Shown piece after piece: positions 21,360 through 61,986 of a stretch of 64,000 nucleotides of DNA. Source of the stretch: Octopus vulgaris (taxonomy: Eukaryota); the NCBI GenBank assembly GCA_951406725.2, contig OX597843.1:17856001-17920000 (forward strand), given 5' to 3'. The position numbers and the translations under genes were made by a program. How positions within the stretch are numbered: position 1 is the stretch's first letter; every line of letters starts with the position of its first letter. The notes beneath the pieces are model-generated. The model was not told the DNA's origin. It saw only the letters and a program-made list of their open reading frames with translations, and made no database searches.

Positions 21360-21814
21360 AGTCAGATATTTTATTAAGTAAACTATTTTTGTTGGCTCGG
21401 ATTCTGTGGATCGCCTCCATCTTGCATAAATTGCAGTTCTTCGCGTGTGTATTCCCTTATTAGAGACCAATTCAGACTGAACTCTTTGTTGTTCTTTTTT
21501 AATTTATTGATGTAGGTTGTTAGTGTGGTTGAGTTTTTAGTTTCGTGGTTAGTGAAAGAGTTTATATACGCCCTATATCTGCTTTTCAAGTCAATAGTAC
21601 TACCTCTCTTTACTCTTTTACTTGTTTCAGTCATTTTGACTGCGGCCATGCTGGAGCACCGCCTTTAGTCGAGCAAATCGACCCCGGGACTTATTCTTTG
21701 TAATCCCAGTACTTATTCTATCGGTCTCTTTTGCCGAACCGCTAAGTGACGGGGACGTAAACACACCAGCTTCGGTTGTCAAACAATGCTAGGGGGACAA
21801 ACACAGACACACAA

Positions 21815-21848
<34 letters not shown>

Positions 21849-22200
21849 GTATATACATATATACGACGGGCTTCTTTCAGTTTCCGTCTACCAAATCCAC
21901 TCACAAGGCTTTGGTTGGACCGAGGCTATAGCAGAAGACACTTGCCCAAGATGCCACACAGTGGGACTGAACCCGGAACTATGTGGTTGGTAAGCAAGCT
22001 ACTTACCACACAGCCACTCCTGCGCCTATGTAAATTTTTCTAGGTTCATTTAGGGTTGACACTTCAACTTTGTACACGGTATTTCTCCTTAAACAGAAGC
22101 CTTTAAGGGGACAAAATTTCCTATTACAAAAATTACATATTTTAATTTTGTTTCCGGGTTTAGCCTTACTATTTTTGATATCCAAATCCTTATAATTATT
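21360..22200 (-). pseudogene. Penelope-like element GIY-YIG endonuclease remnant, split by a SINE A
   Basis: CNFCNRKFCPLKGFCL..VYKVEV..KIYIG | SINE | STIDLKSRYRAYINSF..NSTTL..LKK..LNWSLI, then (frameshifted) CNLCKMEAIHRI..LLNKISD. Confidence 0.85.
21605..22026 (-). mobile_element. SINE family A, full length
   Basis: Reverse complement of family A, inserted at the YIG motif. Confidence 0.88.
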
Positions 22201-22551
22201 ATTTCCCGTGTTGGGATCAGTTGGGTCATCTCCGATGGTTTCGTTCTTTCCAAGTTTAAGTCTCTTATTTGCTGCGATGATAGATCCAAGATTGGGTGTG
22301 GTAGAATGGGATGATTTAAGACACGATCTATTAGATATAGAATGGTACTTTTGACCAGATGGGATTTTCCTGTTGATAATGCTAAAAAATAACTTAGGGA
22401 GCTTTCTTAGTTGGAGGGAGAAGGGGAGCGTAAACCCTAGAATTTCTCATTTCCTCCCATGAAGAACTTCATTAATATGGATTGAATGAATATATACATC
22501 AGCCTTTGAATTTGTTTTCTCTTCTCCTTAATTATATATATATATGCATAG

Positions 22552-24368: not shown

Positions 24369-25477
24369 CAGGGGTTGGACAAAATAATGGAAACACCTAG
24401 TGTCCTATCATCAGTAAAAAGTAATTAAAATTCATTAAAACGACAGATATCAGACTTTCATAAAGGTCAAATTGTTGATGCTCGTATGGCAGGTGCTAGC
24501 GTAACGAAAACAGCCGAAATGTTGGTTGTATCAAGAAGTACTATCTCGAAAGTAATGACAGCCTTTGAAAAAAAGGGAAAACCCTCCTCGTCGAAACAAA
24601 ACTCCAGAAGAAAACCCAAACTTTCAGATAAAGACCGTCATATTCTTATGTGAATCGTTAGAAAAGATCACAAAAGTACAGCTCCCAAAATTACTGCAAA
24701 GCTTAATGGCTACCTCGAGAACCCAGTTTCCACAAAAACTGTTCGCTGGGAGCTGCACAAAGCCGGATTTCATGGGAGGGCAGCAATCAGAAAACCACTG
24801 CTTTCAAAAACAAACGTTGCAAAGCGTTTAGAGTGGAGTAAAAACCTACAGAATTGGTCCCTAGAGTTGTGGAAGAATGTTATTTTCCCGAACGAGTCAT
24901 CCTTTACTGTATTTCCGACCACCGGTCGAGTATACGTGTGGAGACAGCCAAAAGAAGCATTTGACCCAGACTGCCTACTTCCAACTGTTAAACACGGAGG
25001 AGGACCTGTGATGATCTGAGGGGCTATATCATGGAAATCCACCGGCCTAATGGTTTCCCTTCATGGCAGAATTAATAGTCAAAACTATTTAAGCATTTTA
25101 TCTGATCAAATTCAGCCTATGGTTGCGGAACTGTTTCCATAGGGAAACGCAATCTTTCACACAGCTAAAGTTGTTACTGAATGACACGAGAAACATTCTA
25201 GTGAAGCTGAACACCTTATCTGATCACCACAGTCCCTAAATCTCAATATTATTGAACATTTATGGTGCATTTTAGATAAACAAATAAGGAGATGATATCG
25301 TTCACCATCATCACTACAAGAACTGGAGACTGTTTTAGCTGAAGAATGGACTAAAATTCATTCGGAAACAATTCAAGCTTTGTACAAGTGTAATTACTGC
25401 CAAAAGTGGTCCTACCCCATATTAAAATAAATTTGTTTGGAATTTTAAAGTGTTTCCACTATTTTATCCAACCCCTG
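24369..25477 (+). mobile_element. Tc1-like (DD34E) transposon, decayed
   Basis: TIRs CAGGGGTTGGACAAAATAATGGAAACAC / GTGTTTCCACTATTTTATCCAACCCCTG flanked by TA; remnants WKNVIFPNESSF, TVKHGGGPVMI, SPQSLNLNIIEHLW with stops and frameshifts. Confidence 0.9.
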
Positions 25478-60796: not shown

Positions 60797-60862
<66 letters not shown>

Positions 60863-60864
<2 letters not shown>

Positions 60865-61115
60865 AAAGTAAATAAATGGTGCAACGAAGCACCGATATCT
60901 ACTGGAAAATAGCGAACGTAATAAATACGACGCTAATGTACAGCTTCACTGCGTATGTACTAGTAAAGATGCGTGTGTGCAACAAACATGAAAAAAATTG
61001 TCTTACCTCTAGGAAGAACATCTGAAAAATGATAAACCTAGATAACGGATATTTATTACGCTCGCTATTTTCCAGTAAATATCGGTGCTTCGTTGTACCA
61101 TTTATTTACTTTTAT
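60863..61115. repeat. Fold-back element with ~65-bp inverted repeats, in (TA)n
   Basis: TAAAAGTAAATAAATGGTGCAACGAAGCACCGATATCTACTGGAAAATAGCGA / TCGCTATTTTCCAGTAAATATCGGTGCTTCGTTGTACCATTTATTTACTTTTA. Confidence 0.85.
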
Positions 61116-61234
61116 GTATAATTTTACCCTCACGGGCTATCCTTTACTGGAAAGCAATACTCTTGTATTGCATTACTATATATATATATATATATATATA
61201 TTGATCAAAATAAAAACATGATGCCAAGGATTCA

Positions 61235-61312
61235 GCGGTACATATGTTTCGGGCCTTTATTAGACAGATTTATAACAATGCATAATGTATGTCTGTGGCC
61301 TTCTTCAGCCGC
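61235..61312 (-). ncRNA. Type I hammerhead ribozyme, left arm
   Basis: GCGG-CTGAAGA-AGGCC..GGCCC-GAAAC-ATAT-GTA-CCGC. Confidence 0.8.
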
Positions 61313-61767
61313 GCACAACAGCTTCCACAAGGACATGTGTTACATCAAAATTCTTGGTTGGGGATGCAAATCCTCTCATTCGCGTACGACATAATGCGGC
61401 AGCAGCTTAGAATTGAAGCGTCCATCTCTTTCCTCTCTCAATGTAGAATGAGGAAATTAGGATGTTGAATTAATGTAAATAAATTAATAAATAAATACAT
61501 ATATAGACGTGAAGGAACCTGGTAATAAGAGTAATTACCCCTATTTACTCTTATTACCAGGTTCCTTCACGTCTATATATGTATTTATTTATTAATTTAT
61601 TTACATTAATTCAACATCCTAATTTCCTCATTCTACATTGAGAGAGGAAAGAGATGGACGCTTCAATTCTAAGCTGCTGCCGCATTATGTCGTACGCGAA
61701 TGAGAGGATTTGCATCCCCAACCAAGAATTTTTGATGTAACACATGTCCTTGTGGAAGCTGTTGTGC

Positions 61768-61845
61768 GCGGCTGAAGAAGGCCACAGACATACATTATGC
61801 ATTGTTATAAATCTGTCTAATAAAAGCCCGAAACATATGTACCGC
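61768..61845 (+). ncRNA. Type I hammerhead ribozyme, right arm
   Basis: GCGG-CTGAAGA-AGGC..GCCC-GAAAC-ATAT-GTA-CCGC; predicted cleavage after A61841. Confidence 0.8.
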
Positions 61846-61946
61846 TGAATCCTTGGCATCATGTTTTTATTTTGATCAATTTACTCCACCACCTACACCA
61901 CCAAACGGTATACACAGGTGCTTATAATTATCAAGTACTCACCCCG

Positions 61947-61986
<40 letters not shown>

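Follow-up and report, generated by a model that had tools for sequence, protein, structure and literature searches.

The 681-bp palindrome at 61200-61880 of the window (the whole 64,000-nt stretch of Octopus vulgaris DNA analysed here) can be read, with a probability of roughly 0.9, as two back-to-back, 5'-truncated and hammerhead-bearing 3' ends of an abundant Penelope-like element (PLE) with Hydra-type motifs, which lie in a (TA)n microsatellite and likely stem from one integration event. It is a real, young and ordinary truncated insertion, probably inert and likely a dead end with no functional RNA gene. The features are as follows (coordinates refer to the window).

61177-61201, no strand: left (TA)n target microsatellite; the element end overlaps with the final bases (sequence).
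61200-61537, minus strand: left arm, the 5'-truncated 3' end of the PLE, stopping at the family's short terminus about +42 past the cleavage nucleotide (alignment, copy comparison).
61235-61312, minus strand: type I hammerhead motif with the sequence typical of the family, predicted cleavage after 61239 (descriptor, fold).
61532-61547, no strand: junction of the inversion, centred on CCCC; from about 61535 the direct copy goes on, with 0-nt overlap or insert (junction comparison).
61535-61880, plus strand: right arm, the 5'-truncated 3' end of the same PLE as the left arm (alignment).
61768-61845, plus strand: type I hammerhead motif altered in stem II by the substitution at 61825; cleavage is predicted after 61841 (descriptor, fold).
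61881-61952, plus strand: 72-nt 'tail' to the family's long terminus, about +115 (copy comparison).
61953-61982, no strand: right (TA)n target microsatellite (sequence).

Arm-to-arm alignment bore out the 681-bp palindrome described in an earlier, sequence-only reading and placed its arms at 61200-61537 and 61542-61880, separated by a 4-nt CCCC centre that is enclosed by a 2-bp TA/TA micro-stem. The arms are indeed nearly identical, but they differ at three places and not at about two, namely by a substitution (61255/61825), by a 1-nt length difference within a run of A (~61346/61733), and by a mismatch adjoining the centre (61535/61544). The extension of the right arm beyond the symmetry limit, previously given as ~70 bp, measures 72 nt (61881-61952), and (TA)n was found on both flanks as stated (61177-61201 and 61953-61982). 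As assemblers are known to struggle with palindromes, the structure could conceivably be a fold-back assembly artefact. However, the symmetry ends exactly at the two natural termini of the family, the flanks beyond are not mirrored, the arms differ at the three places mentioned, and the same architecture occurs at 31 other loci with different junctions, which leaves an artefact with a practically negligible chance. Immediately to the left of the palindrome, beside a long (TA)n run, lies a MITE-like element of ~250 bp (60862-61115) with 66-nt terminal inverted repeats that are 95 % complementary.

The parent of the arms is a PLE of 4.4-4.8 kb with reverse transcriptase (RT) and GIY-YIG ORFs. 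A first-look search with the right arm and its extension returned 2,222 candidates in the 2.8-Gb genome, the best of 40 scored being 95-98 % identical. Upstream of the arm, most of 30 fetched copies continue into common sequence, which in 20 longer stretches spans at least 4.4 kb with long ORFs on the hammerhead strand; in their translations, a GIY-YIG-type domain comes after a PLE-type RT. Five of 14 near-full-length loci fetched carry an uninterrupted 836-aa ORF from the family Met; in a sixth, which lacks this Met, a frame of 835 codons is open. In a search with the 5' end of the ORF, pLTR, hammerhead, and tail led straight into the ORF start at 8 of 30 loci (3 more have shorter tail pieces); the pLTR-hammerhead-tail sequence stands before the ORF and again after it, as in partial-tandem pLTRs; the tail sequence of 61881-61952 continues in full-length copies into the 5' UTR and ORF. 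The family thus combines the features of EN+ PLEs, that is, one ORF that encodes a PLE-type RT and, at the C-terminus, an endonuclease (EN) of the GIY-YIG type, a pLTR hammerhead, an inverted 5'-truncated copy, and a one-sided tail. The earlier interpretation of the hammerheads as PLE pLTR hammerheads therefore holds, as the arms are the 3' end of a PLE whose pLTR-tail sequence runs into the ORF, and the link to RT/GIY-YIG ORFs that had been marked for checking exists in the form of intact 836-aa ORFs. Of the 714 ORF homologues found, one of eight scanned passed the Pfam GIY-YIG cut-off, and those from Argonauta show 36-39 % identity; Pfam and PDB searches with the family's own ORF fragments returned nothing informative. 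A Pfam match to RT and GIY-YIG at one locus (L043) belongs to a neighbouring, different element and was rejected as evidence for the family.

By its motifs, the family apparently belongs to the Hydra clade, with the N-terminal RWK position reading RWA. A regex scan of the 836-aa protein recovered RW-, DKT (not DKG; residue 126), YRDD, CxCx5C, VIY..YIG (GIY-YIG-like), CxxC-x-x-E, and CxH and no CX2-5CxxC, while CCHH is absent as judged by eye. This set matches the Hydra-clade definition in section 11 of PMC8557442: DKT, CxCx5C in place of CX2-5CxxC, CxxC plus CxH around a conserved E/N, no CCHH, and additionally a preference for (TA)n, which follows most 3' ends of the family. As presented in PMC8557442, Hydra-clade PLEs, especially Penelope-13_HM, share with the octopus family the C-terminal EN, DKT, the CxCx5C linker, CxxC/CxH, and (TA)n targeting as well as a hammerhead whose helix III is palindromic and whose stem II has an additional nucleotide on either side. 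In Supplementary Files S1/S2 of the same paper, Penelope-13_HM is listed together with an inverted copy that is 5'-truncated, and its two strands carry the same hammerhead. In contrast to the elements described there, the octopus family is longer (4.4-4.8 kb vs generally <3 kb) due to a microsatellite-rich 3' region of ~2 kb, has a longer tail (~72 vs 30-40 nt), reads RWA instead of RWK, and carries a long stem II extension. Hydra-1_Obim, a listed octopus family of 2,507 bp, differs by eye in protein N-terminus, length, and hammerhead from our family, which is apparently undescribed; among the entries listed by a literature search on octopus hammerheads and Penelope elements, no paper dealt with it. 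In the portion available, the octopus repeat annotation of PMC13282606 gives 190 Penelope-like families without sequences, and the family may therefore already be in that repeat library.

The layout of the palindrome is already published for PLEs, including the Hydra-clade element Penelope-13_HM. The canonical EN+ PLE insertion unit (PMC3846280; PMC8557442, Fig. 2 legend) comprises a pLTR, an adjacent inverted 5'-truncated copy, and a one-sided tail; it shares with the palindrome the inverted pLTRs, the tail at one end only, and junction palindromes, and in these descriptions no structural difference from the palindrome is apparent. Likewise, PMC4209133 reports dual minimal hammerheads on opposite strands 100-700 bp apart, and for PLEs, inverted copies with truncated 5' ends are described in PMC8557442, along with (TA)n targeting and tails on one side. 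The 27-nt hammerhead 3' half-site occurs in 1,568 exact copies genome-wide, and the genome-wide search suggested earlier thus does find other copies. We sampled inverted units from the first 100 listed half-site matches on contig C1, which gave 68 position-ordered clusters and 70 fetched regions and, being selected by an exact 27-nt match, favour young copies. A minus-then-plus pair like that of the palindrome is present in 28 of the 68 clusters (within 1 kb in 15), and 31 of the 68 hold divergent inverted units, in line with the earlier view that the inverted arrangement is typical of PLEs; 39 of the 70 regions have no inverted partner. The genome probably holds hundreds of near-perfect 0.2-1-kb palindromes from this family.

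The 3' ends of the family fall into two classes, +26 to +42 and +109 to +128 nt past the cleavage nucleotide, and all 31 inverted units on C1, like the palindrome, pair one long with one short end, for which random pairing would give a chance of ~0.5^31 (hand calculation). The tail, which is 'optional' or 'often at one end' in the wording of PMC3846280 and PMC8557442, is one-sided in 31/31 here. Exact abutment on (TA)n was counted genome-wide 739 times for the short end (13 in a backwards control) and 509 times for the long end (control 0). Both termini are inside the 5' UTR, and the family ATG lies at ~+192 past the cleavage site. Solo copies use the short terminus too (+26 to +42 in 23 of 40 non-paired arms, 3 of which represent one duplicated insertion), which indicates that this terminus is independent of inversion. 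The duplicated insertion lies at C1:57.30-57.32 Mb (L173-L175), where three identical solo copies with identical flanks are spaced ~8.15 kb apart, that is, a local tandem duplication.

Within loci, arms diverge by 1.0 %, compared with 3.6 % between loci (174-nt core, 27 loci), and the own partner arm is nearest or tied at 21 of the 27, suggesting that the two arms of each unit derive from the same template; gene conversion between arms could also lower the divergence within loci. The junction varies among units from 25 to >4,000 nt upstream, and given this variation together with the closer similarity within loci, the mirror arm was most likely made anew at each insertion. The short-ended arm reaches >50 nt further upstream in 9 of the 31 units (in 7 by >150 nt), the long-ended arm is longer in 7, and in 12 the two arms agree in reach to within 12 nt, leaving 3 intermediate units; the palindrome belongs to the near-symmetric class. 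In six of the 31 units (L138, L139, L144, L145, L149, and L158, all on C1), the junction lies on both arms at a short inverted repeat in the local sequence, 187-213 nt upstream of the cleavage site; several solo copies also begin near there, pointing to a truncation hot spot. A much larger structure, a 7.3-kb near-perfect palindrome (97.7 %), is built of the same family at C7:7.608-7.618 Mb (L046).

These observations may be accounted for by twin priming, for which we see slightly better than even odds: in every inverted insertion, the two target strands would each engage one of the two RT start sites of the same RNA template, presumably through a dimeric RT-EN protein. The element's GIY-YIG endonuclease would nick the self-complementary (TA)n target on both strands, and each free 3' end would prime reverse transcription of the element RNA, one at the +115 site and the other at +42. 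Both cDNAs would stop early (at the palindrome ~300 nt upstream of the hammerhead) and would be joined end to end to give the inverted arms. If true, a single event accounts for the pLTR inversion, the mirrored hammerheads, and the presence of the tail on one side alone. The strict pairing of long and short ends together with the same-template arms favours two start sites, each primed from a different strand of the target; moreover, with the short-ended arm reaching further upstream in 9 of 31 units and the long-ended arm bearing the tail, neither arm is a simple fold-back copy of the other. Biochemical precedent comes from PAc, a Poseidon element of Anolis (Frangieh et al. 2024, PMC11167929), whose protein, according to the sections available, cuts both strands of AT-rich DNA in vitro, initiates reverse transcription internally at two positions that delimit the tail, and is a predicted dimer. 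PAc resembles the octopus family in that its target is AT-rich, its tail is delimited by two internal termini, the tail region includes an AC-rich stretch, and a hammerhead lies just upstream, whereas its start sites lie inside the ORF and both termini of the octopus family, known from sequence alone, lie in the 5' UTR.

However, several points count against twin priming. Microhomology is not enriched at the junctions (22 of 33 fall within -3 to +30, mostly 0, vs a null mean of 0.83), which leaves the joining of the cDNAs unexplained; the other 11 show longer apparent inserts, some likely due to reference mismatch. In addition, 39 of the 70 regions lack an inverted partner, and the 12 near-symmetric units and the palindrome would fit only if one further assumes that the two cDNAs terminate at a common RNA 5' end or barrier. 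For the latter, fold-back is a natural explanation, and the symmetric class, palindrome included, fits self-priming equally well: the long-terminus cDNA would snap back at CCCC and copy itself, and the hairpin would then be cut or re-joined at +42. Besides the nearly perfect hairpins at the palindrome and 12 of 31 sampled units, the micro-stem around CCCC and a second locus turning at the same place speak for this route, and self-priming at junction palindromes and EN-mediated resolution of the tail have been proposed in PMC3846280 and PMC8557442, respectively. Yet fold-back cannot yield the nine units with a further-reaching short-ended arm, and the +26 to +42 ends also occur in solo copies, and we regard it as possible but less likely than not as the source of the mirror arm. 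By motif, none of 40 solo arms carries short inverted complementary ends, and one such end was seen by eye (L168).

What adds to the published layout is the strict long/short end pairing in 31/31 inverted units with arms from the same template. The origin of tandem and inverted PLE structures is named an open question in PMC8557442, and in vitro PLE work, as represented by PMC11167929, covers one Poseidon element; the pairing and those units that fold-back cannot explain provide genomic support for two-site priming in another clade. A literature search, thin in subscription journals and judged from listed entries, found no paper on twin priming in Penelope elements. The palindrome itself is routine, and the useful thing is the family, in which intact ORFs and fixed termini at ~+42 and ~+115 make the twin-priming model directly testable.

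The sequence-only reading had further proposed a young, non-coding insertion and, beyond that, a distinct non-autonomous PLE derivative. The former stands, and the copy has no ORF; the latter is not supported, the arms being simply the 3' end of a family that is itself autonomous and whose ORFs are intact. A retrozyme- or MITE-like derivative mobilised as a unit would be expected to occur in many copies with the same internal structure. The junction pattern of the palindrome was found at 2 loci genome-wide including itself, allowing up to 1 mismatch. The second locus (L028/L041) does turn at the same point, but differs from the palindrome by 12-13 substitutions over ~325 nt, compared with 0 (L028/L041) and 2 (palindrome) between the arms of one locus, and its short end lies at +35 instead of +42, so that the two junctions apparently arose independently. 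A junction seen at only one other, seemingly independent locus indicates a truncated insertion and not a spreading mini-element, as does the variation of junctions from unit to unit. Animal non-LTR retrozymes, proposed in the accessible part of a preprint (bioRxiv 10.64898/2026.07.22.740005) to be non-autonomous PLE derivatives, resemble the palindrome in being non-coding and PLE-derived with a type I hammerhead; however, they consist of at least two head-to-tail tandem monomers, each with a hammerhead, whereas the copies here are divergent-inverted and the palindrome is single-copy as a unit. A mobile derivative is thus largely refuted and very improbable.

Both hammerheads match the type I descriptor (+61768-61845 and -61312-61235), which found one further match in the window that is unrelated to the palindrome. 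They comprise a 4-bp GCGG/CCGC stem I, the CUGAAGA and GAAA cores, and a self-complementary 8-nt helix III with AUAU loop. The site is GUA, its A17 lying at 61841 and, in the mirror copy, at 61239. The claim of intact type I cores in each arm thus holds as far as the descriptor goes, but the change at 61825 removes the fourth base pair of stem II in the right arm, a variant seen in 1 of 123 scored hammerheads (pre-selected for an intact GAAAC-AUAU-GU stretch), 100 of which share a single intact pattern with type I core and helices I-III. Sister copies of ~80 % identity keep the core and stems with an altered loop II, and no compensatory changes were seen. Older sister families in the same genome (L197-L200; 63-92 % protein identity) likewise include two in which core and stems are retained while loop II has changed (L197, L200); at the 63-67 %-identical loci L198/L199, no hammerhead was recovered with the type I descriptor used. 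The suggested check with a hammerhead covariance model came out negative, in that Rfam scans matched neither motif (one gave generic hairpins below the gathering score, the other 0), probably because of the long stem II insert and the minimal helix III. An AAUAAA hexamer at 61819-61824, in the internal loop of stem II and 17 nt upstream of the predicted cleavage site, is present in every scored family copy and is followed ~20-35 nt downstream by a U-rich tract; speculatively, the two resemble a poly(A) signal overlapping the ribozyme.

As a monomer, the left-arm hammerhead is predicted to form stems I and II with P ~0.76-0.79 and helix III with P ~0.23-0.24, while in the right arm the stem II variant lowers P(stem I) to ~0.05 from the family-typical ~0.76. 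The weak monomeric helix III and a predicted self-duplex of its 8-nt palindrome (-7.0 kcal/mol) are consistent with the dimer model put forward in PMC4209133. A transcript of the whole palindrome, however, is predicted to fold into a hairpin of -619 kcal/mol with a stem I probability of 0, and as the two hammerheads lie on opposite strands, no single transcript contains a tandem pair; cleavage at the palindrome therefore appears unlikely, and both hammerheads would be passengers, sequestered in any read-through hairpin RNA. The same prediction speaks against the earlier idea that competing folds release defined hairpin RNAs.

Nevertheless, any read-through transcript would form a near-perfect 338-bp duplex, and contigs of four putative-RNA runs cover the family ORF and pLTR (23-30 of 30 bins), a coverage at the family level and not of the palindrome locus, strand, or ends, from contigs that may be DNA. 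The locus could hence be thought to make a functional, self-trimmed hairpin RNA serving as siRNA source or editing substrate, which we consider very improbable in view of the absent stem I in the full transcript and the predicted weakening of the plus-strand hammerhead by the change at 61825. Moreover, monomers of minimal PLE hammerheads showed no cleavage in the experiments described in PMC4209133, protein was needed in those of PMC11167929, and element-sense transcription would presumably run outward from the centre and include one arm only. With hundreds of similar units probable (15 of 68 sampled clusters hold exact-motif pairs within 1 kb), nothing singles this palindrome out, although family palindromes, if transcribed, could add dsRNA substrates for editing or silencing. 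Inspection of the window's open frames by eye, also weighing against a functional hairpin, revealed remnants of transposable elements but nothing recognisable as a host exon. They include frames resembling the thumb-linker and endonuclease of another Hydra-type PLE remnant (21386-21664 and 22006-22446, minus strand) and mariner and Tc1 transposase remnants (10096-11153, minus strand, and 24429-25016, plus strand), all judged by eye. About 4.9 kb past the window end (L201:4913-4980, plus strand), a second, different type I hammerhead with 5-bp stem I, 4-bp stem II, and palindromic helix III is followed by (TA)n and probably marks where another PLE family ends; a LINE-like ORF of 1,149 codons is present at this locus too.
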